DNA of 64,000 nt from Candidatus Saccharimonadia bacterium (GCA_023253175.1 JALRHH010000002.1:192199-256198), one strand, 5' to 3'; numbered from the stretch's first letter, positions 34,526-53,094 are shown. Made by a program: numbers and translations. The notes: a model not told the origin generated them from the sequence alone.

Positions 34526-34545
34526 TCGACTATAATAACCTCCAG

Positions 34546-35604: not shown

Positions 35605-36272
35605 TAAATACCTGGCTCGGTAACCTCATACTGAATATTATAGTCATCTGGTCTAAAACCGATTGATGCTATATAGTCTTTGACTTGTGTTTTGTACTGC
35701 TCTATGGCGCCTTCTCTATCAATTCTGATATCCGCGGCGGTAAGGATCAGCTCGGCGTGTATGGTAAGGCTGTCATTTTCGTATAAAGCCTCTAGTTTAT
35801 AATTAAGGCCATCATATGGAAGGTGTGTAAGAATTGGGTCCGCCTTTGAGCCGTTTGAACTATCTTGAGCTTTAAGTATTGCTTCCTTTTGACTCTTCGG
35901 TAGTTTCTCAAACGGAATTTGCTTTGCTGTAAATCGAACAGTCTTGTTAACTAATTCTTCTCCCTTTTTCGAATGAATCTTAGAAATTTCAATCGTGTAT
36001 TCTTGCCGAGCATCCATTGGTCCAAGTCCGATGCGCAGCGTCTTTTCATTTACTACATCATAGCCTGTTATGGGCGCTTCGACGACGTTTACTTCGATAT
36101 TGTCTTCATCAAGTGCTTTGTTGAAGTTAATATCAATAAAAGGAGATATATTAGATACTTGTCTGGTCCCTGGGTTTGTGCCCGTAATGTGGAATACGAA
36201 GAACTGATAGTACAAAAGTCCAATAAAAGGAATTATAAGAACACCTATAACGATTATTAAAGCTCGTTTCAT
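35601..36272 (-). CDS. Membrane-anchored hypothetical protein with Ig-like (SbsA_Ig-like) domain; last gene of the T4SS-like operon
   Basis: 223 aa with N-terminal TM ALIIVIGVLIIPFIGLLYYQFFVF. Its start overlaps the upstream stop (TAATG at 36270-36274). Its stop overlaps the recF stop convergently. Confidence 0.5.
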   Translation of the reverse strand: MKRALIIVIGVLIIPFIGLLYYQFFVFHITGTNPGTRQVSNISPFIDINFNKALDEDNIEVNVVEAPITGYDVVNEKTLRIGLGPMDARQEYTIEISKIHSKKGEELVNKTVRFTAKQIPFEKLPKSQKEAILKAQDSSNGSKADPILTHLPYDGLNYKLEALYENDSLTIHAELILTAADIRIDREGAIEQYKTQVKDYIASIGFRPDDYNIQYEVTEPGIY

Positions 36273-37624: not shown

Positions 37625-40600
37625 GGCGATCTCGATTTCTTGCTGAGTTCAAGTAAGTTAATGCTCTTATTATCGCCCATTGCTCTGAAAAGATCTTGTG
37701 GACAAACATGCCTGCTATTGAAGGTCAAATCAATATGAAGGTGTGGTCCAGTGACTTTACAGCCAACTTGGCCAAGATCGAGTATTCTCTGGCCAGCATT
37801 TACTTTGTCGCCCTTTTTAAACCGTGGGTTTGTGCCATGACCGTAGGCAATGAGAACGCTACCACCTGCGATATTCGATCGTATAATCATTCCCTCTCCC
37901 GCGCCGCAAAGATTTGTTCTTTCAACCGTACCATCAAGCATCGAATACACGGGTGCCTTTAATGGTGGAGAGCTAATATCGACAGCGCCGCCACGGAGAT
38001 ATGGAGATGTAAAAGTCCCGCTTCTCATGCCATGTGCGTCGAGGAAATCACTCTTGTTGCTGTCCCAATACTTTTTATCTACTGGCCAAGCAAATCCGCT
38101 TGAACTTATCTCTGATCCTCCACTGGCACCGTCACCGCCTGCGGCTGCATCGCCTCCACCAGGGACAGTAATAGTTGTGTAGACTGGAGTCTTGGGGTGG
38201 TCTGACCCACTGACTGACTTACCGCCGTAAATAGCCTTGAATTTATCAATAACAACTTCTGGTGTGACATAGAGATAGTCCACACCACCCATGCCATTCT
38301 TTTGGCGACAATCTTTTTCTGGTGCCTCGGTTATCTTCATGAGTTTTTTAGCTGTCACCTTGCAGAAAAAGAGATTCGATTGTTTACCTTCATAGGTTAT
38401 ATTTCCTTTTAGTCGAACACCAGTACCCTCATTAAAGTCACCAGTAAATATAATTGGGACTCCCGGATTCTCTTGTCTGAGTTGTTCAATTTTTGCTACG
38501 TATAGGTCTGCAGACTGCATTCTCCGAAGACTACTCTGATCCATCGTGCCCGCACCACCATCGTCATTGTTTCCAAAGCCATTTGCAGCGCCGTGGGTGT
38601 TCATGAAGATAACTTGCTGTCCTGCTTTTGTCTTCAGGAATACGATTGGCGTTTGGGCGTGTGCATGCTCGATCTTTCCCCCACCTTCTGGACCACAGTC
38701 TGTGTCGAGGTTATTGTATCTTGGGTAGTCAAGAAAACCACTCTCTGCTCTTATGAAGTCAAACTTATTTCTATTCCAGAAAACCGCCTGTGGCACGGCA
38801 CATGGGTTGTCTGCTTTCGTTGGCCAAGAGTCGTAATCCGGTAAGTTCTGCTTAAAGTACCGGAAGTTACTGTCACCACCACGGAGCTCCTGGAACCCGA
38901 CAATATCAAATCCTACATTGCCTTTTGCACCTTTTGCTGTCTTGATGAGATTCACAGCTTTTGACCACTGTGTTGGTCCCCAACCGTTCTTACTTGGGAT
39001 ATTGTAAGTCGCTACCGTAAAGGTGCCACCAACGCCGCTGGAAGTAACGCCGCCACCTGATGATGCATCTTCGATGGCGTTTTCGCCTGCGAGTTCTGGC
39101 GCGTACTTGCCCGCCGTAGCACCCTGAGCCATGGAGTCGAATATGACGCAGTTGTATACGGTTTCAATTGTATCTCCTGCGTCAGGATTGTCCGCGTAAA
39201 GTTTTCCATAGAAGTCCGAGCTACTGGTCATGAGTTCCCAAGTTAACTCAGAAGAATCAATGAGACCGAGTTCGTCGGCATTAGTCATTTTGGGTAAGGA
39301 GTCCTTCTCTATGCTATTCAAGGGGTTGCTATCTGTACATTCGGCTGGTATATCATACATTTTTATGCCACCGAAATTAGCCGCCTCTCTACCAGTTGTT
39401 GTAGCTGCCTTTACCTTTCGGTTTGTCGCAATGCTAAAGGGTGTCTTCCAGACTGAGGAGAATGTGCGCATAAACATGTTAGAACGTGATTGTGTCGCGT
39501 TGGCTGTTATTGCCGAGGCAAGAACAGAATCGGTATTATCAAGACTTAAGTATCTATCAAAAGTTGACATATTCTGTTCTTTGTCTTGCATGTACTGCGC
39601 GATACGAACCTGATTTTCTCGCATTGATGTCTCGGTCGCGAGTGCGCCGCCAGCTAATCGTGATGAGGCTTCGGCTGCTCCTGCCCCACCTTGTATGACC
39701 TGATTCAAGATAACGCCGCCCGGAGAGCTTTCGTCGATTGCGGGAACTGCTCCTGCAAATCGAGCAACCTTCCCAACTGCCCAACCAACAATATCTTCAA
39801 TGTTGTCACTCAGCCCCAGACCCTTTAGTGCTCCATTCACGATTGGTCCGGTAACAGCACCAAGAACAGAATTAAATTTATCCAGCAGCCACCCAGCTCC
39901 TGTGTTGTCAAGGGCTGAGCCAAGTGGCCCCAATACGTAGCCCACTGAGTTCTGCCAAGCACTCTCAAAGGTTTTCGCATTCGTACTTGCTCCGACTTTT
40001 TGTGAGTCACAAAGATAGTGATATTCTTTCTCTGCCTCCGGCTTGTTCTCTTTTAGTTTGAGCATCTCCTGATGCTTGTCGCTACAGTAATCTTCTTTAT
40101 CTTTTGCTGGTGTAAAGCTTTCTGCACTAACAGCTCCTGAATTACTGGAGTTAACGATGACTTTATTCCAGCCCTCACTGGTGCCAGCGTAACTGAATAT
40201 TTGCATGAATTCATTATATTCTTCGGCGCTGAGCTCACCAGTATGATACTGGCTTGCAGGAATAGCAGCGAAGCTCGTGAATGCTGCTATGGCTTGCGCA
40301 TTTCGCATAGAGTAAACACCCTTGGACGCGGCACCGTTCTTTACTTGTTTATCGATATTTGTGAGTGTGTTTATAGTGTCTAGCGCACCAGCAGCACTCG
40401 CAAATTTAGTAACAACGTTATTGAGGATTTTAGACGTAAATCCTTTGCTTTTGCTGTCCCCCTCATCACTATCGCTATCCCCTGATATGTCGTCAGCGGT
40501 TCCTTCTAGGTCGCTATGGTTTGACGGATCATTTGGGTCTGTCGATGAGGAGCACTCGGAGCTTGGTAGAATGGCAAAGAGACATTGAATAAACTTACCA

Positions 40601-41685
40601 CTCTTTGTGCTTTCAGGCATTGATTTCTTTATTGCTTTTGATAACGCGGATACTTTTGCATCGTGCCATTTATCCCGGGTTTTTTCGAAGAAGCGCCAAT
40701 CGCGTATTCCGGTCATATTCTGGATAGCCTTGCGCGTATAATACCGCTTTGCGAATTGCCATGGTTTTGTGTTTTCATTCACAATCTTTTTAATGGCTTT
40801 GCGGCCCTCTTTGTCATTATTCATTACCTGGACATCTACAAAGTCACCGAGTCTGCCATTAAATTTATTAATGTCGAGATTATTATTATCCACCGCATCA
40901 CCTATAGCAGCTTGTTCTGCTGGTGTTAATTCAAACTTTATTTGCTCGTCATTAATAGATACGATGGCGGGTCTGAACTTTATTTGGTTCCCGTCGCGGT
41001 ACGCAGCGCTGGCAAATTTAATGCCATGCTTTTCGAATACTTCTTGTTCAAACTTACTCGCGCGAAGTGTTCTGTACCAGTCTGTTGTGGGGCTATTTGT
41101 ATCGACTCTGTTTGATCTGAAGATCATATTATCTCTGTCTTCAGGTGCAAGACCCGAGTCATCAACCTCCATAAGTCTCAGTGATATATATGCATTGACC
41201 CACTTACTAGAGCGACCTTCCATGTCAACCTGGAATCTTACAAACGTCTTTGCCTCGATATTTTTGAGGAACATGTCGATGTTTAGGGAGCTAAACATGC
41301 CAAAGAGCGCAATTATACTGCCGATCATTCCTCCCCCGGCAATTGCTAAAATGGTTTTTCGCTTCCTTGACGCGTTAGAAAATAAATTTCTTATGTTGCC
41401 TCTTTTTTTGTCCGCGCCGCTGTAAAAACCATCTAGATCAGATTTCTCTTGCTTGTCTGCTGCAGTGGCACCGTTTCCCTGTATTCCTGAAGATTCGACC
41501 TTTTCGATACTTGCACCATCTTCAGGTCTGTAAAAACCTGCATTTTCAGCAATATCATCGGCAGCACCACTATATGCAGCGTCTTCCATCCTGTCCTGTT
41601 CTTCGGGGCTTATGCCAAGCTCCTGAAGAAAATCTGGCTCCATCGAATGTTTTGCAGTTTCGTCTTCGTGTTTTGTAGGTGACAC
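37615..41685 (-). CDS. Giant single-pass membrane protein: acidic N-terminal tail, TM, approx. 750-aa unknown ectodomain, EEP (DNase I-like endo/exonuclease/phosphatase) domain, C-terminal M23/LytM peptidase domain
   Basis: 1356 aa. GTG start at 41685 with AGAGGA upstream. TM at aa 110-135 (TILAIAGGGMIGSIIALFGMF). EEP motifs appear in order at aa approx. 887-1172 (nt 38170-39027): TYNI, GFQE, MNTH, GDFN, SDH. M23 lies at aa approx. 1197-1325 (nt 37711-38097): GDKVNAGQRILDLGQVG..TGPHLHIDL. Confidence 0.75.
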   Translation of the reverse strand: MSPTKHEDETAKHSMEPDFLQELGISPEEQDRMEDAAYSGAADDIAENAGFYRPEDGASIEKVESSGIQGNGATAADKQEKSDLDGFYSGADKKRGNIRNLFSNASRKRKTILAIAGGGMIGSIIALFGMFSSLNIDMFLKNIEAKTFVRFQVDMEGRSSKWVNAYISLRLMEVDDSGLAPEDRDNMIFRSNRVDTNSPTTDWYRTLRASKFEQEVFEKHGIKFASAAYRDGNQIKFRPAIVSINDEQIKFELTPAEQAAIGDAVDNNNLDINKFNGRLGDFVDVQVMNNDKEGRKAIKKIVNENTKPWQFAKRYYTRKAIQNMTGIRDWRFFEKTRDKWHDAKVSALSKAIKKSMPESTKSGKFIQCLFAILPSSECSSSTDPNDPSNHSDLEGTADDISGDSDSDEGDSKSKGFTSKILNNVVTKFASAAGALDTINTLTNIDKQVKNGAASKGVYSMRNAQAIAAFTSFAAIPASQYHTGELSAEEYNEFMQIFSYAGTSEGWNKVIVNSSNSGAVSAESFTPAKDKEDYCSDKHQEMLKLKENKPEAEKEYHYLCDSQKVGASTNAKTFESAWQNSVGYVLGPLGSALDNTGAGWLLDKFNSVLGAVTGPIVNGALKGLGLSDNIEDIVGWAVGKVARFAGAVPAIDESSPGGVILNQVIQGGAGAAEASSRLAGGALATETSMRENQVRIAQYMQDKEQNMSTFDRYLSLDNTDSVLASAITANATQSRSNMFMRTFSSVWKTPFSIATNRKVKAATTTGREAANFGGIKMYDIPAECTDSNPLNSIEKDSLPKMTNADELGLIDSSELTWELMTSSSDFYGKLYADNPDAGDTIETVYNCVIFDSMAQGATAGKYAPELAGENAIEDASSGGGVTSSGVGGTFTVATYNIPSKNGWGPTQWSKAVNLIKTAKGAKGNVGFDIVGFQELRGGDSNFRYFKQNLPDYDSWPTKADNPCAVPQAVFWNRNKFDFIRAESGFLDYPRYNNLDTDCGPEGGGKIEHAHAQTPIVFLKTKAGQQVIFMNTHGAANGFGNNDDGGAGTMDQSSLRRMQSADLYVAKIEQLRQENPGVPIIFTGDFNEGTGVRLKGNITYEGKQSNLFFCKVTAKKLMKITEAPEKDCRQKNGMGGVDYLYVTPEVVIDKFKAIYGGKSVSGSDHPKTPVYTTITVPGGGDAAAGGDGASGGSEISSSGFAWPVDKKYWDSNKSDFLDAHGMRSGTFTSPYLRGGAVDISSPPLKAPVYSMLDGTVERTNLCGAGEGMIIRSNIAGGSVLIAYGHGTNPRFKKGDKVNAGQRILDLGQVGCKVTGPHLHIDLTFNSRHVCPQDLFRAMGDNKSINLLELSKKSRSPCN

Positions 41686-41758
41686 CTAAAAGTCCTCTTA
41701 GTGGATATTATACCTGTTATGGATCTAAAATCAGAATTCTGTGTATATGCTGAGCTAA

Positions 41759-43666
41759 TTAAATTCCTGGCATGAGCCTGTTATTAAGGTCAATTGTCCC
41801 GCCATTACCAGTAAAGCTTCCTTGTTGTTCGATCGCTCTCACTTGGTCTGGATTAGTGGTGATAAGATTTGTCTCTGTTTCACTGGCTGCGATTTGGATA
41901 TGTACATGGTTTTGTCCGGCAAAGAAGAGTCCCTGTCCAACGGGGAACTGGCTCAATCGCTTCTTTTCCTCACTCGTTAGCTTAAATACATCGGACAACA
42001 CATCAACGGCCGCTGGTGATTGCTTAAGGAGTATCTGCATGGAGGCATTGTTTACGATCGCCCTTCCCATACGTGATCCCATAAAGTCTTCCACATCTTG
42101 GGTGATGGTTGTGATGCCAAGATTATACTTACGGGCACGCTTTGCGAGACTAAACAAGAAGTTGGCCGAGTCCTCGTATTTCATGAGCTGCCACGCCTCA
42201 TCAACAATCATGATGCGGCGCTTTTGATCGCTCTTGGTCTTGTTCCAAATAAAGTTCAGTACGATGTACATCGCGACAGGACGAAGTTCGTCCTCGAGGT
42301 CACGAATATTGAATACCACCATAGGGTTGTTAATATCGATGTTACTCTGTTGGCTGAAAATACCTGCGAATGTACCAGTGGTATATTTGCGAAGTCGCTG
42401 CGCTAGCTGAGGACCCGTGCCGCCCATGTGCAGGAGTGTGTCGTACAGGTCGTTAATGGTTGGTGGTGGGCTGCCGTGTGTCAGTGGGTCATTGGTAATG
42501 CCGGCCTTTGCATATGTTTCAATCAGGGCTGCATCAAGGTCTGCTTCCTCGCTTGGGGCGAGTGCAGGCATGCTGGGGCCACCATTGTTGGCCATAGCCG
42601 CCTGGGCACCACCCATCATAAGACGTAGTAGTCCATGCAGTGTTAACAGGTTGCTCGTAAGTGCATTATCGGCCTCTTCGGTATCAACAACCTTTGGTAG
42701 GTCAAACGGATTGATACGGGTTGGAGACGTTAGACTCAGGCGAACGTATGCACCACCAACTGCCTCACACATGCGTTGATATTCGTTCTCTGGGTCAATA
42801 ATAAAGATCTCGGTACCCATCATCATGCTTCGGAGTGCTTCGAGCTTTACAGTAAATGATTTACCAGCACCAGATTTTGCGAATACGACTGAGTTACTGT
42901 TTTCTAGACTAAACCGGTCAAAAATAACCAGTCCAGAGTTATGCATATTGATGCCGTATAAGATGCCGTCGTCTTGTGTCAGGTCAGCGCTCGTGAATGG
43001 GAAGCTCGTACTAAGCGCACCGGTGTTGAAGTTACGCCTAATTTGTAATTGGTCAGTAAGCTGCGGAACTGTGCTATTAAGCGCCTGCTCTTGTTGGCTC
43101 GTTGCTGGCTTAGAGTATACAAGCTGCTGTCCAAGCATTGACTCGACCTTGTGTGCGACATATTCGAGTTCGTCCATACTGCCGCCGTAAATGGTGAAAT
43201 AGAGCCCAAAACGGAAGAAGCGCTCTTCTCCAACCTGAAGCTTATCTCGCATCTCTTCGGCGTCCAGGATGGCGGCTTGCTTTGCGGGATCACGAACACG
43301 GCCTTTTTCAGCATCAATTTGTAATCCAGCCTCAAGCTGCGTCACTTTCTTTCGAAGATTTTCAAGAACTACTTGACTCTCCACTGGATAGATGAACATC
43401 GACATATCCATGACCTCATCAAGGTTAACCATGCTACTGAGCCAGCCGGTGTAGATCTGACGAGGGTATCCGTAAACATAGTAGGTCCGCGCAAAGCGAG
43501 TCCCTAGTTGGAAATGAGTTGAAAAGAATTCAAGTGAACTTGGTGCGATAAAATCACGGAGCGCAGTAATGCCCTTTTGAAAAGCTGCCTGTACTTCTTG
43601 CTGTTCGCGTAGTTGCTGCTGCTGCGCTAGGGCAACCGGGTCAAGTTGCTGCTTCTTTTTAGCCAT
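41759..43666 (-). CDS. virB4: VirB4-family type IV secretion ATPase (C-terminal two-thirds of Gram-positive VirB4/TrsE-type proteins)
   Basis: 635 aa. It has Walker A FAKSGAGKSF, IIDPENEYQRM, Walker B RRIMIVDEAWQLM, and RKYNLGITTITQDVEDF. Confidence 0.9.
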   Translation of the reverse strand: MAKKKQQLDPVALAQQQQLREQQEVQAAFQKGITALRDFIAPSSLEFFSTHFQLGTRFARTYYVYGYPRQIYTGWLSSMVNLDEVMDMSMFIYPVESQVVLENLRKKVTQLEAGLQIDAEKGRVRDPAKQAAILDAEEMRDKLQVGEERFFRFGLYFTIYGGSMDELEYVAHKVESMLGQQLVYSKPATSQQEQALNSTVPQLTDQLQIRRNFNTGALSTSFPFTSADLTQDDGILYGINMHNSGLVIFDRFSLENSNSVVFAKSGAGKSFTVKLEALRSMMMGTEIFIIDPENEYQRMCEAVGGAYVRLSLTSPTRINPFDLPKVVDTEEADNALTSNLLTLHGLLRLMMGGAQAAMANNGGPSMPALAPSEEADLDAALIETYAKAGITNDPLTHGSPPPTINDLYDTLLHMGGTGPQLAQRLRKYTTGTFAGIFSQQSNIDINNPMVVFNIRDLEDELRPVAMYIVLNFIWNKTKSDQKRRIMIVDEAWQLMKYEDSANFLFSLAKRARKYNLGITTITQDVEDFMGSRMGRAIVNNASMQILLKQSPAAVDVLSDVFKLTSEEKKRLSQFPVGQGLFFAGQNHVHIQIAASETETNLITTNPDQVRAIEQQGSFTGNGGTIDLNNRLMPGI

Positions 43667-44598
43667 TACTGAATCTCCCTGTCTAAATTAGGCTGGGGCG
43701 CCATACCTTGGCCTTTGGTAATAACTGGAGCTGTCAAATCATCAAAGTTCTTGAGCTGCTGACGGGTAGCAGTGTCCGGGTTGTAGGTGTCATAGTAAAG
43801 CTCGATAAGTTCCTGTGTATCAAGCGGCAGGCCCTGGATACCACATTGCTGTAATCCCCCAAGCACGGCCTGCACACGGTTGCGGAGCTCGTCCTTAGCC
43901 TTTTCCAAATCAGGTTCGTTGATAACAACATGCTGTTCAGTCTTACTAAACATACTCGTAAGCCCGGTGAAGAAGTTTTTGCTCTCTTTGCCGAGCTGCT
44001 TCATATCTGGCAGCGGGTTAAATGGAATCACGATATAGAACTTTTTGTCCATGAGATTGGTGTGCTGTGCAATATCACTAATGTAATTGATATAATCTTC
44101 CATCAGCAGCGCAAGGAGCATATTGTCATGCTCTGAGCGAATTTTATCTAATCTGTGTATGTACGGTGATATATCAATTTTCTGCGAGCGAATAAAAATC
44201 TGAATATCAAAATACAATGAGTTTAGGAAGCCTTGGTAGCCGTACTCTACACCGTCTCGTTCTTGTGGACTCATAAGGTCAAAGTTAATAGATTTCGTCA
44301 TCACGACACAGCGAAATGTGCCGTCATTCATGATCACGATACCATCACGGATTTCTGCAATCTGTAGTGTGTTTTGTGTGCTGTTTGGGTTGCTCTTTGT
44401 CTTTGGCGCACCGCCGGGCTGTGCCGGACCAGAAACGGTCGGTGCTACCATGCCTACTGGCTGGTGCGGCATACTTGGTTGTGTGTAAGGCTGCGGTTGA
44501 GCCTGAGTGTATGGATTATAGCCCGGATTTTGTTGCACGGGATTTGGCACGCCAGCTCGTTGCGGCGGTGTTTGTGGATATTGTGAATTAGGATCCAT
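43666..44598 (-). CDS. PQ-rich protein whose C-terminal approx. 230 aa resemble the N-terminal domain of Gram-positive VirB4-type ATPases (putative split VirB4 N-domain)
   Basis: 310 aa, no TM. IAEIRDGIVIMNDGTFRCVVMTKSINFDLMSPQERDGVEYGYQGFLNSL...IQIFIRSQKIDISPYI follows the pattern I recall at the N-terminus of approx. 800-aa firmicute VirB4 homologues. Its stop overlaps the virB4 start (TAATG at 43664-43668). Confidence 0.5.
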   Translation of the reverse strand: MDPNSQYPQTPPQRAGVPNPVQQNPGYNPYTQAQPQPYTQPSMPHQPVGMVAPTVSGPAQPGGAPKTKSNPNSTQNTLQIAEIRDGIVIMNDGTFRCVVMTKSINFDLMSPQERDGVEYGYQGFLNSLYFDIQIFIRSQKIDISPYIHRLDKIRSEHDNMLLALLMEDYINYISDIAQHTNLMDKKFYIVIPFNPLPDMKQLGKESKNFFTGLTSMFSKTEQHVVINEPDLEKAKDELRNRVQAVLGGLQQCGIQGLPLDTQELIELYYDTYNPDTATRQQLKNFDDLTAPVITKGQGMAPQPNLDREIQ

Positions 44599-44696
44599 AT
44601 TGATTTAGTTGCCCACCTGCCCCGTAAAGAGGCCTCTTATACCGTTTAAGTATAGCGCAAGCATGGGGTGACTTAAAGTGATTATGAAAAAAATAA

Positions 44697-45686
44697 TTAG
44701 CGCAGACTTACGACGACTTCATTATCATCATTCGGCTTATTGACCTGCCGCGCGATAGTTGCGATGTTTAGATCATTATTCTGAACATACTGCTGCACGA
44801 CCGCAGGGTCAGTATGAGGGGCCACGGGCTGTTGCTGTAGGGGCTTTGTTTGCTGCGATAACGGTGTAATGGACGCCATGTGACCTGTTGCGAGCCTACT
44901 GCTTTCCCGTTGCTGCTTGATCTTTTCGTATACCTGTTCATCTGTTTGGCTTACCGGTTGGCTTGTCGGTACATTTGGGGCAACCGCTGGTTCGACGAAC
45001 CACTGATTCTGAGCAGTGGGTTGCTGTTGAGCTGATTGCTTTTGCTGCATCTGAGCTATGAGTTGCTCCCGGTGGGCTGCCGCTGACTGCGTGACCATTT
45101 GCTGCATGTGCTGCGCCGTAGGGTTGTTCGTGGTGTCCAGTACGTCCTGTATCATCGATGTGTCATAATCTGGTACTTCCTGAACAAGATCTTGTTGGCC
45201 AACAAGACGATCAGAGCTCGCGGCTGCGTAGCTCGGCTGGTTATACATATTTGAACTAACGTTTTTAATCGCCCAGCCACGGCTGTCAATGGTGTTGGCA
45301 AGTGCGTGCAAACGGCTTTTAACCTCTGTCTGGCTAAGGCCGTCGGTCAGAACGCGTTCAATTTTTTTGGGAACAGTAATAGTCACCAATTCCTGAATAC
45401 CGGACTGGTCCCAAATACGCTTGCGCGGCTTTAAAAAGAACTTAATCTTAGCAAGCAGCCAAACTTCTGAAGGTTGGTCATGTACAAATGGTCCTGCTAG
45501 TACTGTAAAGAGGGCCATGTGTGGCAGGAAGATAAATCCAAGCCACCACACGCCATTTGTGGCGAGCATGAACCAGATGAACGCACTCACGAGAACAATT
45601 GCAGCGTATATAGCTTGCCGAGGAGTCATCCATCCAATGATGGTGTCCTCTGCCTCGATATCCTGAATAACTTTATACGTGCCCAT
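44697..45686 (-). CDS. PrgI/VirB3-like membrane protein with long Gln-rich C-terminal extension
   Basis: 329 aa. The N-terminus YKVIQDIEAEDTIIGWMTPRQAIYAAIVLVSAFIWFML plus a second TM matches the PrgI-family pattern (xEDKIxGxLTxRQ followed by 2 TM). The C-terminal approx. 200 aa are Q/P-rich. Confidence 0.55.
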   Translation of the reverse strand: MGTYKVIQDIEAEDTIIGWMTPRQAIYAAIVLVSAFIWFMLATNGVWWLGFIFLPHMALFTVLAGPFVHDQPSEVWLLAKIKFFLKPRKRIWDQSGIQELVTITVPKKIERVLTDGLSQTEVKSRLHALANTIDSRGWAIKNVSSNMYNQPSYAAASSDRLVGQQDLVQEVPDYDTSMIQDVLDTTNNPTAQHMQQMVTQSAAAHREQLIAQMQQKQSAQQQPTAQNQWFVEPAVAPNVPTSQPVSQTDEQVYEKIKQQRESSRLATGHMASITPLSQQTKPLQQQPVAPHTDPAVVQQYVQNNDLNIATIARQVNKPNDDNEVVVSLR

Positions 45687-45720
45687 TAGGCACTAGTATA
45701 GTACATTTCGGAGTCTCTGT

Positions 45721-47088
45721 TTAGCGTTCGCGAAGGTCGCGCGCACGCTTTAGGATGGAGGCTACCTCTGCGTTAGAGAGATCTGCACCAAAGTGCTGGC
45801 GTACAACTTTTCGTCGAATCTCTGCCTTGTCTTCGGCTTGCTGCTCGTCAGAAGTGGAGTCCGCGTAGGTTCTGATGTATAAGCTGAGTTTTTTGCCAAT
45901 CTCTTTATCGACTTGTCGTAACTGTTCTTCAGTGTATTCTTGTTTTGCTTCACCTTGCACTACTTGTTGCTGTGCGGCTTCACGACGCGCCGCTGCAAGC
46001 CTCGCCGAAAGGTCGCTTGGCTTTGGTGCTTGGGGCTGCACTTCTTCCTTTGATTCGCTCGGCAGGTCTGTTGTTTGCTCGGGCTGTGCGGGGAGCACCT
46101 TGTCGAGTCGTTGATTCGCTAGGCGCATAAACAGTTCATTGCTTAGTTGTTCTCGCTCTTCTGGCGGAAAGCTCACGAGACATTTCGTGATAATAATCTT
46201 AAGCGCATAGTGTGTATCCACTGGATTCTCTAAATTGATACCAGATTCTTGAACTTCGGCATCAATCTTTTCGAATAGTGCAGGCTTATCAAGGTCAGCG
46301 TATTGTTCGCCATTGTGCATGAATCTGGTTACAAAGTCTTCTATAAACGCTTCATCATTAAAGCGACCGCGGTCGTGACTCGTAAGCACGCCAACTGCTA
46401 CTGCCATCTTTGCTTTTTGGTCCAGCTTGTCAAAAGACTCACGACTACCTTCCCGCTGTGCGTCTGCAATGTGGCTATTAATCCGCTCCCGTAGCTCCTG
46501 TATGCTTGGAATCTGTTCTTGTAGAGTGCGTTCATTATCTGTACTGCCTATTGACTCATTCGTCGCATCGTTGTTCTGCTCGACTAAGTCTAGAGTTGAT
46601 TCAGGGTTTACTCTCTCGGTATTACCCTGAGCAGAACTTCTCTGGGCAAGCTCTTCCATCGCTTTGTCACGGAGTAGATCGTCCCTGGTGTAGAGCTTCC
46701 CTTTGTATTCCTTCATTTTTTCCAGATTCTTTTCGTATCTGCGCTTGTCCTTAGGGTTCTTGATATCCTCTATGACAACAGGACCATTAACGGGACTCAT
46801 ATAGTGTACATCTGCAAGATCCATATTAATCGATGCAAGGTGAGAGATCTTGCGTCGCCAACGGTCATTCTTCTTGGCTTGTTTGAGGCTTATATTTACC
46901 CCTTCCAGCCGGAGCCTGTCTATTATTAAGTTTAGTTCCCCATCCACCGGCAGTTCCTGGGTATTACTTGAGATTTCCCTGCTTAGCCCTGCCAAGACTA
47001 CACTTTGTTCTTCTATGCTTGCGCCTAGCTCGGAAGCTTCTTTAATTTCTGTTTGATTTAATCCTGACTCAGGACTAGGTTGGTTCAT
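45721..47088 (-). CDS. Hypothetical acidic, helical protein (455 aa) of the T4SS-like operon
   Basis: ORF with no TM and no recognisable motif. It is co-oriented and tightly spaced within the operon. Confidence 0.5.
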   Translation of the reverse strand: MNQPSPESGLNQTEIKEASELGASIEEQSVVLAGLSREISSNTQELPVDGELNLIIDRLRLEGVNISLKQAKKNDRWRRKISHLASINMDLADVHYMSPVNGPVVIEDIKNPKDKRRYEKNLEKMKEYKGKLYTRDDLLRDKAMEELAQRSSAQGNTERVNPESTLDLVEQNNDATNESIGSTDNERTLQEQIPSIQELRERINSHIADAQREGSRESFDKLDQKAKMAVAVGVLTSHDRGRFNDEAFIEDFVTRFMHNGEQYADLDKPALFEKIDAEVQESGINLENPVDTHYALKIIITKCLVSFPPEEREQLSNELFMRLANQRLDKVLPAQPEQTTDLPSESKEEVQPQAPKPSDLSARLAAARREAAQQQVVQGEAKQEYTEEQLRQVDKEIGKKLSLYIRTYADSTSDEQQAEDKAEIRRKVVRQHFGADLSNAEVASILKRARDLRER

Positions 47089-47094
47089 ATGCTA

Positions 47095-47123
47095 ACATTA
47101 GCATAATAGTGTATAAAAGTCAA
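47095..47123 (-). promoter_or_regulatory. Internal promoter of the T4SS-like operon (TTGACT - 17 nt - TGcTAATGT), -10 ends 6 nt before the ATG at 47088; overlaps a 7-2-7 palindrome
   Basis: The minus strand reads TTGACTtttatacactattaTGcTAATGTtagcatATG. The palindrome ATGCTAAcaTTAGCAT occupies 47089-47104. Confidence 0.45.
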
Positions 47124-47140
47124 CTATACAGTTAAGATGC

Positions 47141-48550
47141 TTACCCTAAGGGAGAAGGATTAGGTTCACTGCCTGGCTCGGGCGGTGCCTGGCCTGCTCT
47201 TTGAGCGATCTCGTTCGCATACTCTCGGCGCATCTCCTTGAAGTCACTGTTACCTCTCAGGCCATCAATTGCTTGTTGATAGGTGATGGTGCCAGAGAAC
47301 TGGTAGGAGCCATCAGATTGTAAGAGCGCAGGCTGTAGACGAGCTTTCATCTCAGGGCTGAGAGTCGCGATATCGATAGTCTTACTCAATACTTCATCAG
47401 CAACAATCTTTGCTTTAGCTGGGCTTGATCCTTGCATGCCATCGTAAACCGCTGCAAGAGAGGCGAGACTTTGGGTGAACTGTTTGTCCGAGCCTGACGC
47501 TTGGGCATCCTGCACACTACTGACCATTTCAGGCGCCAATTCCTTGATGGAGTCGGGCTTCATGCTTGAGTGAACAAGTGATGCACCACCCTGACCTTCG
47601 TATACGTCCTTGTGTATTGTCTTGGTTGCTTCTTCGATGTCAGCTAGCGTAACCTCTTCCCCATTGCGAAGTTTTTCTCTAAATTTATTAACCACGCCCA
47701 GGGTAGTTCCGAAGCCAGCCCCTCCTGTATCCATGCGACCTGCTTTTACGGTTTCTGAGCGTCCATTGGCAACAAGATATGATGCCATCGCATCGTCGTC
47801 CTTGGATGCTCGCGCAACATCGAGCCAGAACTCTCCGGCTGCGGTCTTCTTGGTTGCATCCTTTGCTGTTTTATATGCGGTGCCCCCGGCGCCCGCTTGT
47901 CGGACTGTCATGGCCTGGAATGCAGGGGTGCTCATACTTCGCCTGACGTTCTCTACGCGGTTAACAGCGTCGTCAAGCGCCTGACCTTCGTACGCTCGAC
48001 TACCGTCATCATTCCTCATCTCACTAAGATAGCTGCGAAGCTCGGCGGCATTACGGGTCTTGCTTGCAGCTTTATTGAGTCCATCATCATGCATCCATGA
48101 CTGGTATGCTTGATTTTCTTTCATGTTGCGTTCAATCTCTAGCGCGTGGGCATTTTGCATGCCGACTCTGGTTGCTGCACGCCAGTTGTTCGGTTTAAAG
48201 GTATTGCCACTATCGAGTATTGCCCCCGGCGCAGTTAGACCTCCTGAAATACCCCTATTGAGGCGTCCACGAAAGTTCGTCTTAGTTCCGCCAGCAAATC
48301 GATTGCCTCCCCTTGCTCTTTCGTTGTACTTTTGGCGTTGTCCTTCTCGGAACTTGCGTTGCCTATCAAAGAAGCCCCTGCTCCTGTCGTTCAGCATTCC
48401 GGTGAGTGCGCTAAAAGCTCCCATGCCTGTCTTCAACGCAGCAGGTATAAGGAAATACGGCACAATATATGCCGTTAGTTGCACAAACAGATTAAGGAAT
48501 CCGATATCGAGGGCATCTGCAAACTGAATTGAATAGAGTATATGTTCCAT
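47141..48550 (-). CDS. Hypothetical protein (469 aa) with N-terminal hydrophobic segment and Pro-rich C-terminus; T4SS-like operon
   Basis: ORF starting 6 nt after the VirB6-like stop. No recognisable domain. Confidence 0.5.
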   Translation of the reverse strand: MEHILYSIQFADALDIGFLNLFVQLTAYIVPYFLIPAALKTGMGAFSALTGMLNDRSRGFFDRQRKFREGQRQKYNERARGGNRFAGGTKTNFRGRLNRGISGGLTAPGAILDSGNTFKPNNWRAATRVGMQNAHALEIERNMKENQAYQSWMHDDGLNKAASKTRNAAELRSYLSEMRNDDGSRAYEGQALDDAVNRVENVRRSMSTPAFQAMTVRQAGAGGTAYKTAKDATKKTAAGEFWLDVARASKDDDAMASYLVANGRSETVKAGRMDTGGAGFGTTLGVVNKFREKLRNGEEVTLADIEEATKTIHKDVYEGQGGASLVHSSMKPDSIKELAPEMVSSVQDAQASGSDKQFTQSLASLAAVYDGMQGSSPAKAKIVADEVLSKTIDIATLSPEMKARLQPALLQSDGSYQFSGTITYQQAIDGLRGNSDFKEMRREYANEIAQRAGQAPPEPGSEPNPSPLG

Positions 48551-48555
48551 AATAT

Positions 48556-50262
48556 TTATCCGAATAATCCCGCTACAAATTTACCGCTTGCTAGAAGTAT
48601 AGCAATGATCGGATACGCCATAAGCATGGCGATAAACGTGCCCTTCCAGAGTCCCCAGAGTTTATCGTTACCTGGGAATATCCATGCAAGAATTGCTAGT
48701 GGCGCTATGACCATGAGCATGATGAGGAGTACTTGCCTGAGGACAAGAATAACAAATCCTATAAATAGTCCGACAGCGGTAACAAGCGCAAAGCTACCTA
48801 CAATTCCGATCGTAAGAGCACCTGACAGAACCGCAGCTGTTGTAACAACCAGGCCGCCGAAGCCTGCGAGTGTCGTTGATGCTTGATGTGCCGCAAGAAT
48901 TTCTCCTATGCTCGAGGTATCTGTTGGGGATGCGTTGATGATGATATTTCCAAGTCCCTGTCCAGCAATGTTGCTGAGCGCGACACCGAACTGTGTAATG
49001 GGGAGTGATAATACTATAAATATAGTTGCAAAGAACATACGCGGAAGCGCTTTTTTGACAGTATATGGATCAAATGGGCCAAAGTTAATCGCCGTTCCGA
49101 TAACCATAAACATCATTATCGGCACAAGTATAAGCAGCGCGATGTTGCGCATTGTTTCCCACGCCTGTTCTATCTCTGCCCCCTTGTACCTGTCTCCGTC
49201 AACAAACAATAGGTTGTTTACCCATGTATCGAGCGTATCAACGATGCCGTCAAGGATGCCTCCGATGACTTGGCAAAGGAACCATGCAAGTGGACCACCT
49301 TCGCTTTCACAGGATGCTTCTGTGTTCGAGCGGCTACGGTCATCGCCGGTTGTTCCATCGTTTATGCCAGCTGCTTTATTATCTTTTATTTCCTTTACGT
49401 ATGCATCTATGTACTTATCTAAATCACTCTCTAAGTCTTGGCAGCGTTTCTTGTTGTTGCTAGCAAAATAGCCGTTTCCACCAGTGTCAATATTGTCATT
49501 GCCGTCTTTGGTCTCGACGTACCATTGCTCGATCTTGTCATCTTTGCTGTTGTATAGGGGACTTTTATATTTCTTGTCGCCCTTTAGGCTTTGATCGGTA
49601 TACAGTTCTTTAAAATCTGCCCTACAGCCAAGTCGGAATGTTTCGAGGTTTATGTAGTATCGCATGCCAGGGCTAAGCGAATCCTGAATACCCTTGCCCT
49701 CTAAGTACTTCTCTCTAAAAATTTTGTTCCACTCATCTTGTATCTTGTTTGACTCGGTGCCACCACTCCACCTGAAATGACCAGAGCCGCCCTTACAGGA
49801 GTCGCCTGCTGGCCCAGCGGTATCACGTGTGAAGCCCATGGTACATAATACGTCCTTCCAATCAAGATCAAGTGCGGAGAGTGCCTTGGTTACGAGGTCG
49901 GACTCGGAGCAATCAACGATACCATCGTCCCCATTGCCTTCAACTTCGTTGTTTAGAATGGTGCCAACATTTTTTCCACCCTCACCCTGGCCATTAAACC
50001 ACTCACCACTCTCGGCATGGTCTTCATCGATCAAGTCATTATTAATACCATCCTTTAATCCGTTTTCTTTGAAGCAAAGACCTATCGCTCGTCCATAGAG
50101 CCAAGCCTTGGACCGTTGCTCAACAGTGTCTTTTGAGTATGGTGCGGCACTTGCTAATTCTGGCTTGACGCCAGTAAAGACAACAGTACTCACAAAAACA
50201 GCGGCAAATAAAAGCGCTACGTACCTATAGAGTTTTTGTGTCTTTTTCATGAGTTTCCACAC
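48556..50262 (-). CDS. VirB6/TrbL-like polytopic membrane protein with approx. 320-aa Cys-containing N-terminal ectodomain
   Basis: 568 aa with a signal-like N-terminus. The C-terminal approx. 220 aa have 5-6 TM, including LMVIAPLAILAWIFPGNDKLWGLWKGTFIAMLMAYPIIA, which resembles the conserved TrbL/VirB6 region. The track start is GTG at 50262; an alternative ATG is at 50250. Confidence 0.6.
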   Translation of the reverse strand: MWKLMKKTQKLYRYVALLFAAVFVSTVVFTGVKPELASAAPYSKDTVEQRSKAWLYGRAIGLCFKENGLKDGINNDLIDEDHAESGEWFNGQGEGGKNVGTILNNEVEGNGDDGIVDCSESDLVTKALSALDLDWKDVLCTMGFTRDTAGPAGDSCKGGSGHFRWSGGTESNKIQDEWNKIFREKYLEGKGIQDSLSPGMRYYINLETFRLGCRADFKELYTDQSLKGDKKYKSPLYNSKDDKIEQWYVETKDGNDNIDTGGNGYFASNNKKRCQDLESDLDKYIDAYVKEIKDNKAAGINDGTTGDDRSRSNTEASCESEGGPLAWFLCQVIGGILDGIVDTLDTWVNNLLFVDGDRYKGAEIEQAWETMRNIALLILVPIMMFMVIGTAINFGPFDPYTVKKALPRMFFATIFIVLSLPITQFGVALSNIAGQGLGNIIINASPTDTSSIGEILAAHQASTTLAGFGGLVVTTAAVLSGALTIGIVGSFALVTAVGLFIGFVILVLRQVLLIMLMVIAPLAILAWIFPGNDKLWGLWKGTFIAMLMAYPIIAILLASGKFVAGLFG

Positions 50263-50319: not shown

Positions 50320-50348
50320 TTGCCAAAAGTTATATTTCACAATATAGT
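50320..50348 (+). promoter_or_regulatory. Promoter of the pilin-like array (TTGCCA - 17 nt - TATAGT), -10 ends 9 nt before the ATG at 50358
   Basis: Read directly. It is divergent from the VirB6-like operon start. Confidence 0.45.
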
Positions 50349-50357: not shown

Positions 50358-51005
50358 ATGAAGCAAATACGAAAAACAAAGCTCTTGCTTGTAATTATAG
50401 GAATCATTGTGTCGTTCGTCGGACCCGTGGTCCTTACTAATTCATCAACGGTCTTTGCGGCCGGGTGTATTACTAATCCGAGCTCTGATCCGTTAGTAAC
50501 CGATCAACAAAACTGTATAAAGAAGTACGTTAAAGATTGTAAAGACAAAAAGTTCGAAGCAACTTTCTGTGATAACCTGACAGTCAAGCAGATAAACAAT
50601 TGTGCGAATGACAAAGGATTTACACTAAAGAAAGCTTGTGTAGAAAAGTTGATAGCGGATGCCTCAAAAGACGAAAGCGCTGAGGGCACCTCGTCTGGCA
50701 GTACTAGTGATATCGGGAATGACTACGACACCGACGATTGTGCAGTCTCTCCCGAGGGTCTTGAAAGCAGTAACTGTGAGGTAATTAAGATGATTGTCCT
50801 CATTACTAATATTATGTCTGGTCTAGCGGCTACGGTGATCGTGGCGATGATTGTATTGGGAGGTATTCAATATTCAACGGCAGGTGCAGAAGCGGCTAAA
50901 GTCCAGGCGGCTAAACAAAAGATTACCAATGCCCTTCTTGCTCTTATGTTATTAATATTTGGATTTAGTATTATTCAATGGCTTGTTCCGGGAGGATTGA
51001 TTTAA
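50358..51005 (+). CDS. T4SS pilin-like (VirB2/TrbC-like) protein 1, with long Cys-rich N-terminal ectodomain
   Basis: I prefer the ATG at 50358 (MKQIRKTKLLLVIIGIIVSFVG...). The C-terminal module is SGLAATVIVAMIVLGGIQYSTAGAEAAKVQAAKQKITNALLALMLLIFGF (TM - G.QY..S.G - AK - TM). Confidence 0.6.
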   Translation: MKQIRKTKLLLVIIGIIVSFVGPVVLTNSSTVFAAGCITNPSSDPLVTDQQNCIKKYVKDCKDKKFEATFCDNLTVKQINNCANDKGFTLKKACVEKLIADASKDESAEGTSSGSTSDIGNDYDTDDCAVSPEGLESSNCEVIKMIVLITNIMSGLAATVIVAMIVLGGIQYSTAGAEAAKVQAAKQKITNALLALMLLIFGFSIIQWLVPGGLI

Positions 51006-51006
51006 C

Positions 51007-51333
51007 ATGTGTGAAGATAAAGGTATTACCTTAATCCCGTCATGGCACCAGTATTTGCCTAAGGACGGTGATTGCCGCATAGATATTAATAAGTTTACCT
51101 TCCCCGATGATATCGCACCGATTGCTCTGGCTGTCGTAGAGATACTGCTTCGGATTGGCACATTTGCTGCGATTGCTTTTGTGATCTACGGCGGTTTTCA
51201 GTTTCTGACAAGTCAGGGTGAGCCAGATAAGGCTGCAAATGCACGCAAAACAATCATCAACTCTGTAGTTGGACTTGTAATTACCTTGCTCGCTACGGTG
51301 GTTGTGTCATTTATAGGGGGTCAGCTTCTATGA
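51007..51333 (+). CDS. T4SS pilin-like protein 2
   Basis: 108 aa with the C-terminal module AIAFVIYGGFQFLTSQGEPDKAANARKTIINSVVGLVITLLA. No obvious signal peptide. Confidence 0.6.
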   Translation: MCEDKGITLIPSWHQYLPKDGDCRIDINKFTFPDDIAPIALAVVEILLRIGTFAAIAFVIYGGFQFLTSQGEPDKAANARKTIINSVVGLVITLLATVVVSFIGGQLL

Positions 51334-51611
51334 TAGACAAACTTTTGTCATTTGCTGTTGTTGATGAATTTGAAGTACCAAAGGGAGAATTTGGTGATTC
51401 TGAACTCGGAACGATTCTAAAGATAGTATTTGGGATTATGGGGGCTGTGGCGGTGGTTGTGCTACTCCTGGCCTCGTTAAAGTACGTCATATCCAGAGGT
51501 GATCCCGGTGAAGTTGCCAAGGCAAAGAACGCTATTATATATGCAGCAATTGGTCTTGTTGTAACCGCGTTTGCATTTAGTATTGTAGGATTTGTGGTAA
51601 ACAGAGTATGA
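51330..51611 (+). CDS. T4SS pilin-like protein 3
   Basis: 93 aa with the module AVAVVVLLLASLKYVISRGDPGEVAKAKNAIIYAAIGLVVTAFA. There is an ATGA start/stop overlap with protein 2. Confidence 0.6.
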   Translation: MIDKLLSFAVVDEFEVPKGEFGDSELGTILKIVFGIMGAVAVVVLLLASLKYVISRGDPGEVAKAKNAIIYAAIGLVVTAFAFSIVGFVVNRV

Positions 51612-52003
51612 TCGGAAAAATGAAATTATTTATTGTTGGACTACTGGCTACTTTTAGTCTCTCGCTTGCGTTTGCCCCAAGTGCATCGGCAGCCTTTAGT
51701 TTGTTTGGCGATGCTTGTAGGGGTGTTTCGGACTCTGCTGTTTGCAAAGATAGTAAGAACTCAAGCAATCCAATCTATGGACCGAATGGTATCGTAGGAA
51801 CAGTCGTTAATATTCTTTCCATTATTGTTGGTGTGGCGGCGGTAATCGTCATCATTATTGCTGGCATACAGTACATGCTGTCTACGGGTGATCCTAGCAA
51901 GGTTAATAATGCCAAGAACGCTATTTTGTATGCCGTTGTGGGACTGATTATTGCAGTGCTGTCTCAAGTGATTGTCAAGTTTATAATTTCGAGGATAGGT
52001 TAG
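51608..52003 (+). CDS. T4SS pilin-like protein 4
   Basis: 131 aa with signal peptide ...APSASA and a Cys pair (GDACRGVSDSAVCKD). The module is AAVIVIIIAGIQYMLSTGDPSKVNNAKNAILYAVVGLIIAVLS. There is an ATGA overlap with protein 3. Confidence 0.65.
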   Translation: MIGKMKLFIVGLLATFSLSLAFAPSASAAFSLFGDACRGVSDSAVCKDSKNSSNPIYGPNGIVGTVVNILSIIVGVAAVIVIIIAGIQYMLSTGDPSKVNNAKNAILYAVVGLIIAVLSQVIVKFIISRIG

Positions 52004-52006
52004 AGT

Positions 52007-52450
52007 TTGAAGCGGCTGATCCTTGCATTGTCTATCTTGTTCGTAGGATTTTTCTTAACTTCACCACTGTCTGTATCCGCACAAGCAGATGCTTCAAGCC
52101 AAGTATCGTGCGAAACTTTAAGGAACGTAAACCCCAACGACATCGGGTGTGCGGGTTCTAATGGTCAAGTCAGCAAGGTAATTAGGTTGGCCCTCCAGAT
52201 ACTAAGTCTTGCAGCTGGCATTATTGCGGTCATCATGGTCATTGTATCCGGGCTTAAGTACGTGACCTCCCAAGGTGATTCTAATGCAATATCCAGCGCC
52301 AAGAATTCATTGATCTACGCAATCGTAGGTATTGTAGTGGTTGTTTTTGCACAGATTCTTGTGCAATTCGTGCTACAGACTTCCGACAGAGACTACTCCC
52401 CTAATCCAGTTGAAACAGAAGATTCGTCACGCCGCACTGATTCACGGTAG
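52007..52450 (+). CDS. T4SS pilin-like protein 5
   Basis: 147 aa, TTG start, signal peptide ...LSVSAQA, and a Cys pair (CETLRNVNPNDIGC). The module is IIAVIMVIVSGLKYVTSQGDSNAISSAKNSLIYAIVGIVVVVFA. Confidence 0.6.
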   Translation: MKRLILALSILFVGFFLTSPLSVSAQADASSQVSCETLRNVNPNDIGCAGSNGQVSKVIRLALQILSLAAGIIAVIMVIVSGLKYVTSQGDSNAISSAKNSLIYAIVGIVVVVFAQILVQFVLQTSDRDYSPNPVETEDSSRRTDSR

Positions 52451-52545
52451 TTTGAATCGACCATTAACGTGTCGCGTATCCCTTGTAGACGGCGTTTTCT
52501 TGTGGTATAAGTAATCCTAGACAAATAAGAAAGGTAATCAGAAAT

Positions 52546-52953
52546 ATGATTCAAACACTAAAAAATAATATTGCTAAGATTCTCATTGCGGCTGCCCTGT
52601 TGGCTCCTGCGTTAGTGCCTGCAACCGTGTCAGCAGCAGATGCGGACATTCAGAACAGCCTTAAGCAAGGCTCATGTTTAGACGTAAGTGCTGAGTGTGA
52701 AACACAAGGCTCAGAGGAAGATATTAATAACCTTATCGCAACGGTGATTAACATTTTCTCTGTGGTTGTCGGTGTTGTGGCAGTTATCATGATCATTATC
52801 GGTGGTCTTAAGTACATTACCTCTTCTGGTGACAGCAATAACGTAACAAGCGCAAAGAATACGATTCTTTACGCAATTATCGGTTTGGTAGTTGTGGCGC
52901 TTGCACAATTCATTGTGAAGTTCGTGCTCCAGCGCGCTACTTCTTCAGAATAA
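52546..52953 (+). CDS. T4SS pilin-like protein 6
   Basis: 135 aa with signal peptide ...ATVSAADA and a Cys pair (CLDVSAEC). The module is VVAVIMIIIGGLKYITSSGDSNNVTSAKNTILYAIIGLVVVALA. Confidence 0.65.
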   Translation: MIQTLKNNIAKILIAAALLAPALVPATVSAADADIQNSLKQGSCLDVSAECETQGSEEDINNLIATVINIFSVVVGVVAVIMIIIGGLKYITSSGDSNNVTSAKNTILYAIIGLVVVALAQFIVKFVLQRATSSE

Positions 52954-52972: not shown

Positions 52973-53001
52973 AAAAAAGCCCCTTCACCGGGGCTTTTTT
53001 G
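52973..53001 (+). terminator. Intrinsic terminator after the pilin-like array
   Basis: AGCCCCttcaccGGGGCT followed by TTTTTT. Confidence 0.75.
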
Positions 53002-53077: not shown

Positions 53078-53094
53078 TATGAATCCTCTATGGA

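Follow-up and report, generated by a model that had tools for sequence, protein, structure and literature searches.

A six-gene array of putative VirB2-related pilins beside a chromosomal type IV secretion operon of Saccharimonadales

The window analysed here is a 64,000-nucleotide stretch of DNA from a Candidatus Saccharimonadia bacterium (GCA_023253175.1, JALRHH010000002.1:192199-256198), and the element in question is a run of six small genes at positions 50358-52953 that an earlier reading of the same sequence (the original prediction) had described as tandem paralogs resembling VirB2 and other pilins of type IV secretion systems (T4SSs). All six consecutive open reading frames (ORFs) were recovered by ORF scan at the predicted positions and sizes in amino acids (aa):

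50298/50358-51005, plus strand, pilin 1, 235/215 aa depending on the start
51007-51333, plus strand, pilin 2, 108 aa
51330-51611, plus strand, pilin 3, 93 aa
51608-52003, plus strand, pilin 4, 131 aa
52007-52450, plus strand, pilin 5, 147 aa, TTG start
52546-52953, plus strand, pilin 6, 135 aa

The raw sequence places genes 1 and 2 one base apart and genes 4 and 5 three bases apart. The predicted coupling of genes 2-3-4 is visible as ATGA start/stop overlaps at 51330-51333 (genes 2/3) and 51608-51611 (genes 3/4), and gene 6 does lie behind an intergenic region of its own, a 95-nt gap at 52451-52545.

All six proteins align over a common C-terminal stretch of ~75 residues in which two hydrophobic helices surround a polar turn (18-49% identity among the paralogs of the window, mean 32%), and hydropathy gives two C-terminal transmembrane (TM)-like segments in each. 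The motif originally written for this module stands as a consensus, from which genes 1 and 2 depart (GA/NA; GE/AR for GD/AK/YA). A hidden Markov model (HMM) built from the six modules turned up no seventh copy anywhere in the 64 kb; the scores of the six themselves are circular, the model having been trained on them, and only the absence of extra matches is informative. The Pfam searches that the original prediction had proposed as a check gave T4SS_pilin (PF18895) scores of 44.4, 54.1, 51.8, 43.0 and 57.8 bits for genes 2-6 (E-values of 1e-11 to 1e-15), all above the gathering score of 26.6 bits, and 22.7 bits (E=1e-4) for gene 1, just under it; about half of the gene-1 homologs, among the matches listed, have a precomputed PF18895 match. 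Matches to TrbC/VirB2 (PF04956) were sub-threshold, the best being gene 6 (24.1 bits, E=4e-5), gene 5 (23.8 bits, E=5e-5) and gene 4 (19.6 bits, E=1e-3). Since 51 of 63 family members match PF04956 at E<=1e-3 (best E=5.6e-8), the family link to VirB2 appears real, though distant. Among NCBIfam models the best for every one of the six genes was NF045849, the Mbov_0395 pilin-like conjugal transfer protein, with gene 6 at 41.2 bits passing the curated cut-off of 40 bits and genes 1-5 (19.0-36.6 bits) falling under it. A PDB sequence search with the six-paralog profile returned chance RasGAP matches only (E>0.2).

A TrbL_3/VirB6-like gene runs divergently from the array, and VirB4 lies 6.7 kb from it. 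The array adjoins VirB6/VirB4 in nearly all of the ~50 Saccharimonadales loci with enough flanking sequence; where the flank reaches far enough, it is found on the strand opposite to VirB4 and upstream of it. The original prediction had named as a refuting outcome the lack of any significant match to a T4SS pilin family, which the PF18895 results contradict, and had weighed against the pilin identity the possibility that these are generic two-TM membrane proteins with no tie to the neighbouring VirB4 and VirB6 genes; given the pilin-family matches and the T4SS linkage across relatives, we rejected this candidate and consider it effectively excluded. On the same grounds, with PF18895 matched by five of the six proteins and TrbC by most relatives, it is nearly certain that the six genes are the pilin array of a chromosomal, monoderm-type (MPF-FATA-like) T4SS of Saccharimonadales, and the positional counterpart of SEML1_0014-0019 of Southlakia epibionticum.

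The paralog HMM was applied to 80 related loci from GTDB species matched through VirB4; complete arrays were compared from 48 of these species, and most of the counts below rest on 32 six-gene arrays. The 48 complete arrays included 32 with six genes, 7 with five and 4 with seven. When the best match of each gene was sought among the six-gene arrays (992 comparisons per position), it fell at the same array position in 978 cases for position 1, 988 for position 2, 832 for position 3 and 972 for position 6, so that the paralogs are old, separate lineages and the six positions orthologous groups of long standing, clean for 1, 2, 3 and 6 and blurred for 4/5. Exact DNA words common to paralogs of the window are at most 12 nt long, which speaks against recent duplication or gene conversion. 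Orthologous modules are 40-61% identical, and N-terminal parts 11-34%, in species whose VirB4 is ~85% identical. In a comparison with L087, the closest relative available (its pilin 6 is 87-88% identical), nonsynonymous divergence (dN) was low in pilin 2 (0.08) and pilin 6 (0.10) and came to 0.20-0.40 in pilins 3, 4, 5 and 1; synonymous divergence (dS) was saturated (1.8 to undefined), so that only the relative dN values are usable and the comparison gives no inference of selection.

These comparisons bear on the two functions that the original prediction had entertained, a major pilin with minor or tip subunits and a variable repertoire for receptor or host specificity. In the latter, the paralogs would be alternative, interchangeable major pilins that let the antigen or the host range vary, a role proposed for the VirB2 arrays of Bartonella and Anaplasma; the idea is raised for Patescibacteria in parts of PMC12102498, and it draws on the fast divergence of the N-terminal parts, on position-6 duplicates in some species and on the exchange of the pilin 1 head between relatives described below. 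Conserved orthologous positions with position-specific traits, the lack of recent duplication or gene-conversion tracts and the translational packing of genes 1-5 into one operon, rather than into switchable cassettes, all run counter to it, as does the essentiality of each of the six genes in S. epibionticum, which redundancy would not predict. A further point against it is that six other contigs, from different samples, carry pilin 6 with no difference from the window (100% identity) apart from a single mismatch in one of them, so that within-species polymorphism offered no strain variation to analyse. We therefore regard an interchangeable repertoire as improbable, even though genuine variability exists in the head of gene 1, and favour a major pilin plus minor or tip subunits on account of the positional orthologs, the absence of recent duplication and the six individually essential genes of S. 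epibionticum. The four seven-gene arrays (L063, L068, L079 and L080) each contain, as the extra gene, a second position-6-type pilin; both copies follow the conserved intergenic promoter-like site in L068, L079 and L080, and one precedes and one follows it in L063.

Pilin 6 consists of a signal peptide, a C44-x6-C51 loop and the module, which at 61% identity across species is the highest of the six positions; by this measure pilin 6 appears to be the most conserved paralog. An AlphaFold2 (AF2) model shows a hairpin of helices 56-92 and 97-133 with a predicted local distance difference test score (pLDDT) of 86-95. The gene is also set apart by putative expression signals, listed here with those of the rest of the array:

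50320..50348, plus strand, promoter-like site of pilin 1, TTGCCA-17-TATAGT, a consensus match only
52483..52511, plus strand, promoter-like site of pilin 6, TTGTAG at 52483-52488, a 17-nt spacer and TGgTATAAG with its hexamer at 52506-52511
52526-52535, plus strand, Shine-Dalgarno (SD) sequence of pilin 6, TAAGAAAGGT, read from the sequence
52973..53000, plus strand, intrinsic-terminator-like hairpin AAAAAAGCCCC-TTCACC-GGGGCTTTTTT with a T-run, ending the pilin operon

The pilin 6 promoter-like site and the terminator were spotted by inspection of the sequence and then checked for conservation in the 32 species, an automatic promoter and terminator scan having missed both (the TATAAG hexamer lacks the final T, and the T-run lies within the stem). 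A gap of 44-147 nt precedes pilin 6 in all 32 species, with TTGnnn-16..18-TATAA in 27 and an SD-like site in 31, and a terminator-like hairpin with a T-run follows within 90 nt downstream of pilin 6 in 25. Genes 1 to 4, by comparison, overlap or lie no more than 15 nt from the next gene in all 32 arrays, with the exception of the gene 4-5 junction, where this holds in 28. The promoter and SD of pilin 6 probably function as such. Folding of the RNA from 52440-52560 gave no structure beyond chance (z=-0.25). We suggest pilin 6 as a candidate for the major subunit.

For pilin 1 the most likely start, judged from alignments, is 50358, giving 215 aa, since homologs align from that methionine and the promoter-like site lies inside the 235-aa version; the site, placed where pilin 1 and the VirB6-like gene diverge, stops 10 nt short of the ATG at 50358. 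The protein comprises a signal peptide, a disulfide-rich helical head (about residues 36-109), an acidic/Ser-rich linker, DC-x11-C and a module ending in QWLVPGGLI, and, where a Cys-rich ectodomain had been ascribed to it earlier, eight cysteines are counted, including the membrane-proximal C128-x11-C140. In the AF2 model a helical head (residues 40-109, pLDDT >90) is joined by a disordered linker to a hairpin of helices 137-174 and 179-209; Foldseek against the PDB found no informative fold match for the head. Relatives whose module is 82-89% identical to that of the window carry unrelated heads (12-19% identity), and those with the same type of head (30-45% identity) have modules only 61-71% identical. 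Pilin 1 is thus a head/stalk mosaic, a swappable Cys-rich head on a conserved stalk.

A signal peptide followed by a Cys-x(6-13)-Cys loop had been attributed to four of the proteins; this holds for pilins 1, 4 (C37-x8-C46, then the module), 5 (C35-x12-C48, the module and a 20-aa hydrophilic C-tail) and 6, with the correction that pilin 2 has a Cys pair as well (C2 and C23, conserved in orthologs). Small-x-small sites are predicted in the signal-peptide-like N-termini of genes 1, 4, 5 and 6 and are absent from genes 2 and 3, and across species such a segment is present at positions 1, 4, 5 and 6 in 32 of 32 arrays, at position 2 in 12 and at position 3 in none. The absence of a signal peptide from genes 2 and 3 was upheld when their starts were extended upstream: extension of gene 2 is blocked by an in-frame stop at 50998, and there is no start codon for gene 3 between 51231 and 51330. 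Pilin 2, which is 86% identical in the closest relative, has an N-tail motif conserved in the ortholog alignment (C..(F/L)..P.W..YL...C, in a fuller form C..F.G.P.WY.YL...C) ahead of the module, and pilin 3 a short acidic N-tail with a conserved LP-type motif. At 51007-51075, pilin 2 of the window begins at the Met-Cys of its conserved motif, and many orthologs have an 'M...FAA' leader or a full signal peptide. Since the leaders before the conserved Cys differ, N-terminal processing of pilin 2 probably varies by species.

Signal peptides in four of the six would also suit small Sec-secreted proteins delivered by the T4SS. However, T4SS effectors are normally recruited from the cytoplasm and not through Sec, two strongly hydrophobic helices would be left in every protein after any signal-peptide cleavage, all six match a pilin family, and pilin 3 has no signal peptide in any of the 32 arrays. 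Although a TM7x transcriptome preprint calls these genes putative effectors ('six putative effector genes'), we consider this reading, too, to be effectively excluded.

In-frame p2-p3 fusions of 217-226 aa with two modules occur at L013:1855-2508, L050:759-1421, L051:538-1218 and L057:3687-4343, all on the minus strand, and one species has a 276-aa p1-p2 fusion (L082:2535-3365). Fusions explain four of the seven five-gene arrays. Because a fusion requires the joined termini to lie on one side of the membrane, these fit an N-out/C-out arrangement for the proteins without signal peptides, and they suggest that the fused pilins are neighbours in the assembly.

The machinery with which the array is associated lies on the opposite strand and was delimited by family searches and ORF scan:

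35601..50262, minus strand, divergent T4SS machinery operon
within this operon, minus strand, a 223-aa ORF, a CHAP hydrolase (450 aa), an M23 protein (1356 aa) and VirB4 (635 aa)
within this operon, minus strand, a TraC-like protein (310 aa), a PrgI/VirB3-like protein (329 aa) and a VirB6/TrbL_3-like protein (568 aa)
45721-47088 (455 aa) and 47141-48550 (469 aa), minus strand, two machinery proteins with no Pfam or NCBIfam match

With the six pilins the T4SS cluster comprises 14 genes, in number and order as SEML1_0006-0019. Its VirB4 is of the CD1110 (Gram-positive) type and also matched a Mycoplasma VirB4 model (254 bits). The 455- and 469-aa proteins are 29-32% identical to their L087 counterparts, where the TraC-like neighbour is 93% identical and VirB4 falls in the same 90%-identity cluster, and would by this comparison be the fastest-evolving parts of the T4SS machine. 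The 1356-aa protein (37615-41685, minus strand) combines an M23 peptidase with a weak, sub-cut-off endonuclease/exonuclease/phosphatase match (20.4 bits); if real, the fusion of a nuclease or phosphatase to a wall hydrolase would merit attention in the context of nutrient scavenging. Directly beyond the machinery operon are dnaA, dnaN and recF (31773-35604, plus strand), a neighbourhood also reported for T4SS clusters of other Patescibacteria. The cumulative GC skew has its minimum near 48000-50000, at the divergent VirB6/pilin promoter region and not at dnaA. On its downstream side the array has as neighbours Hsp20, encoded on the opposite strand, then a gene for a ComFC-like phosphoribosyltransferase and tRNA genes. 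The Hsp20 gene converges on the array, and behind it stands another hairpin and T-run, at 53048-53078, the second of its kind. Taken at full ORF length, Hsp20 (53095-53634) and the ComFC-like protein (53574-54434) overlap head to head, but only because their starts are over-extended; in public annotations they are 158-175 aa and 161-221 aa long, respectively. Farther off, a YidC homolog is encoded at 29821-30753, and a 917-aa protein at 26103-28856 (minus strand) with a cutinase domain and weak, sub-cut-off PKD matches in Pfam could be a secreted esterase acting on the host envelope.

VirB4 of the window is 84-94% identical to VirB4 of 80 GTDB species, mostly Saccharibacteria/Saccharimonadales, the remaining relatives being labelled 'Patescibacteria group bacterium' or unclassified 'bacterium', and DNA identical to the window is also found on contigs of 0.64-0.95 Mb; together these indicate that the window is part of a Saccharimonadales chromosome. 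A tblastn search with pilin 6 against 72,556 plasmids gave no match, and so brought up no relatives on conjugative plasmids of Firmicutes or Actinobacteria, and neither a relaxase nor a coupling protein was detected among the ORFs scanned in the window. An origin as a mobile element or integrative and conjugative element (ICE) was considered and rejected, the locus being chromosomal, beside dnaA, conserved across the class and, in the ORFs scanned, devoid of a relaxase and a coupling protein.

Arrays of this type are already known, and the window holds another copy of a published locus. A 2018 preprint by McLean describes, in the portion dealing with these genes, an array of 4-6 small, VirB2-related signal-peptide proteins beside VirB4/VirB6 in Saccharibacteria, and the relevant passages of Wang 2023 (Cell; PMC10633639) present SEML1_0014-0019 of S. 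epibionticum as six pilins, each essential by transposon sequencing. According to the tables of that paper these are PF18895 proteins of 132, 185, 103, 126, 127 and 138 aa, with an 83-bp gap before the last pilin gene and then Hsp20, a ComFC-like gene and tRNA-Ser. Strain ML1 of S. epibionticum, likened to the window by gene layout and sizes, also has six PF18895 genes in tandem, with a VirB6-like gene running divergently from them, in a 14-gene cluster beside dnaA-dnaN-recF, the same Hsp20, ComFC-like and tRNA genes downstream, a gap before the last pilin only (83 there, 95 nt here) and a short third gene (103 aa there, 93 aa here). In ML1 it is the second of the first two genes that is the longer (132/185 aa, against 215/108 aa in the window), the VirB6-like protein has about twice the length, and essentiality is known for S. 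epibionticum only. Quinonero-Coronel 2025 (PMC12102498) reports, in its survey sections, 441 arrays, each of 2-11 pilin genes, spread over 383 Patescibacteria assemblies, with a mean identity of 25%, located near virB4, most abundant in Saccharimonadia and suggested to serve in adapting to different hosts. In those sections the paralogs are taken as one set, with a mean identity of ~25% as compared with 32% for the module here. The passages of the published surveys that concern these arrays make no mention of orthology by position, of a third gene without signal peptide, of p2-p3 or p1-p2 fusions, of the pilin 6 promoter or of head swapping.

The proteins resemble VirB2/TrbC/TraA of the T-pilus and F-pilus in being small hairpins of two helices around a polar or basic turn, in being encoded with VirB4/VirB6 and in weak, repeated sequence similarity. 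They differ in that six paralogs stand in place of one pilin, signal peptides are present in four and absent from two, the predicted mature proteins are longer (about 100-180 aa) and carry N-terminal disulfide loops, no VirB5 was detected here, and the host is monoderm with no outer-membrane core complex. The Mbov_0395/MMCAP2_0565 proteins of Mycoplasma ICEs (NF045849) resemble them in their wall-less or monoderm host and MPF-FATA-type VirB4 neighbour. Such a pilin-like protein is, however, single-copy on a mobile ICE with a coupling protein and conjugation functions, in contrast to the chromosomal, relaxase-less six-gene array described here, five genes of which fall under the family cut-off. 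To our knowledge, no pilus is known for Mycoplasma elements of the Mbov_0395 type. The strong match to this family suggests that the pilin arrived with the monoderm MPF-FATA system and was not co-opted from a diderm T4SS. The VirB2 arrays of Bartonella and Anaplasma phagocytophilum, as cited in PMC12102498, are alike in consisting of tandem divergent copies in a host-interaction T4SS; the copies there are thought to provide antigenic or host variation, whereas the copies here are of long standing and specific to their positions, and in S. epibionticum none is dispensable. Type IV pili and the pseudopili of type II secretion offer what may be a functional analogy, with one abundant subunit, several scarce specialised ones that prime or cap the fibre, a conserved hydrophobic module and variable exposed parts; their fold is unrelated (a single N-terminal helix) and they depend on a prepilin peptidase and a PilB-type ATPase.

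The best overall explanation, to which we assign a probability of about 0.6, is that this T4SS pilin array supplies a heteromeric structure of specialised subunits. Each protein would sit in the membrane as a two-helix hairpin with both termini outside and the K/Y...GD...AKN turn in the cytoplasm. Pilins 1, 4, 5 and 6 would reach this state by way of cleavable signal peptides, and pilins 2 and 3 would insert independently of one by translocating their short acidic N-tails, perhaps with the YidC homolog encoded nearby. That the VirB4/VirB6 machine then extracts the hairpins and assembles them into one extracellular or wall-spanning structure of specialised, non-redundant subunits is a more tentative step, with odds slightly short of even. 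Within it, pilin 6 would be the bulk subunit, in view of its separate promoter and SD, its conservation, the highest of the six, and the fact that extra copies are of its type; pilins 2 and 3 would form a conserved adaptor pair, pilins 4 and 5 would be more variable accessory subunits, and pilin 1 would be a stalk subunit whose exchangeable disulfide-rich head contacts the host surface, the whole serving an essential, relaxase-less T4SS at the epibiont-host interface. An ordered fibre or conduit, in which pilin 6 makes up the shaft, pilins 2-3 the adaptor and pilin 1 a distal head that sets the host, so that head swapping drives host switching, is a speculative extension that we hold to be unlikely.

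Several points weigh against this explanation. None of the six proteins reached the gathering score of PF04956 (27.9 bits). When the AF2 models of pilins 1 and 6 were compared with the PDB using Foldseek, all matches had E>=0.9 and generic helical hairpins dominated; the only pilus match, 8dfu (the conjugation pilus of A. pernix), was non-significant (E=1.0-3.7; rank 18 for pilin 6 and rank 2 for pilin 1), including its alignment to pilin 1 with a probability of 0.94, a template modelling score of 0.65 on the target and a root-mean-square deviation of 2.6 Å over 70 columns, and a helical hairpin is too simple for a fold search to discriminate. The promoters are sequence motifs only, and the major, adaptor and tip roles are deduced from conservation, from the order of the genes, from expression signals and from fusions. 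In the best-match test, positions 4 and 5 run into 5 and 6 and are not cleanly separable, and the fusions come from metagenome-assembled genomes, where assembly error is possible in principle, if unlikely given four independent in-frame cases. No filament of a Saccharibacteria T4SS has been reported, and cryo-electron tomography of N. lyticus showed two filament types only, both ascribed to type IV pili (PMC12206443).

The last of these findings, in which no T4SS filament was seen, is equally what would be expected if there were no pilus at all and the hairpins stayed near the membrane as a channel, stalk or assembly platform of the monoderm T4SS, forming at most a short conduit across the thin wall where the host is contacted, and no extended filament. 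Gram-positive T4SSs are generally without pili, according to passages in PMC10633639 and PMC12102498; the closest curated NCBIfam family is a 'pilin-like' membrane protein encoded beside VirB4 in Mycoplasma ICEs, and two of the six proteins have no signal peptide. Conversely, the sequence similarity is to TrbC/VirB2 pilins, which polymerise, the disulfide loops and the folded, fast-evolving head of pilin 1 argue for exposure beyond the membrane, and the separate, strong-looking expression signals of pilin 6 fit the bulk subunit of a polymer. On balance we find an arrangement without a pilus rather doubtful, and prefer the heteromeric structure of specialised subunits.

In conclusion, the window makes modest comparative additions to a described locus, whose biology is important in that the T4SS is essential to its bearer: in the sections of the literature that treat it, the T4SS of Saccharibacteria is the first for which this was shown, and the pilin array is its main departure from Gram-positive T4SSs. 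The comparative details argue against the published suggestion of a repertoire akin to antigenic variation. They may also guide work in cultivable species, by pointing to a putative bulk subunit (pilin 6), a likely pair (pilins 2 and 3) and an exchangeable head (pilin 1).

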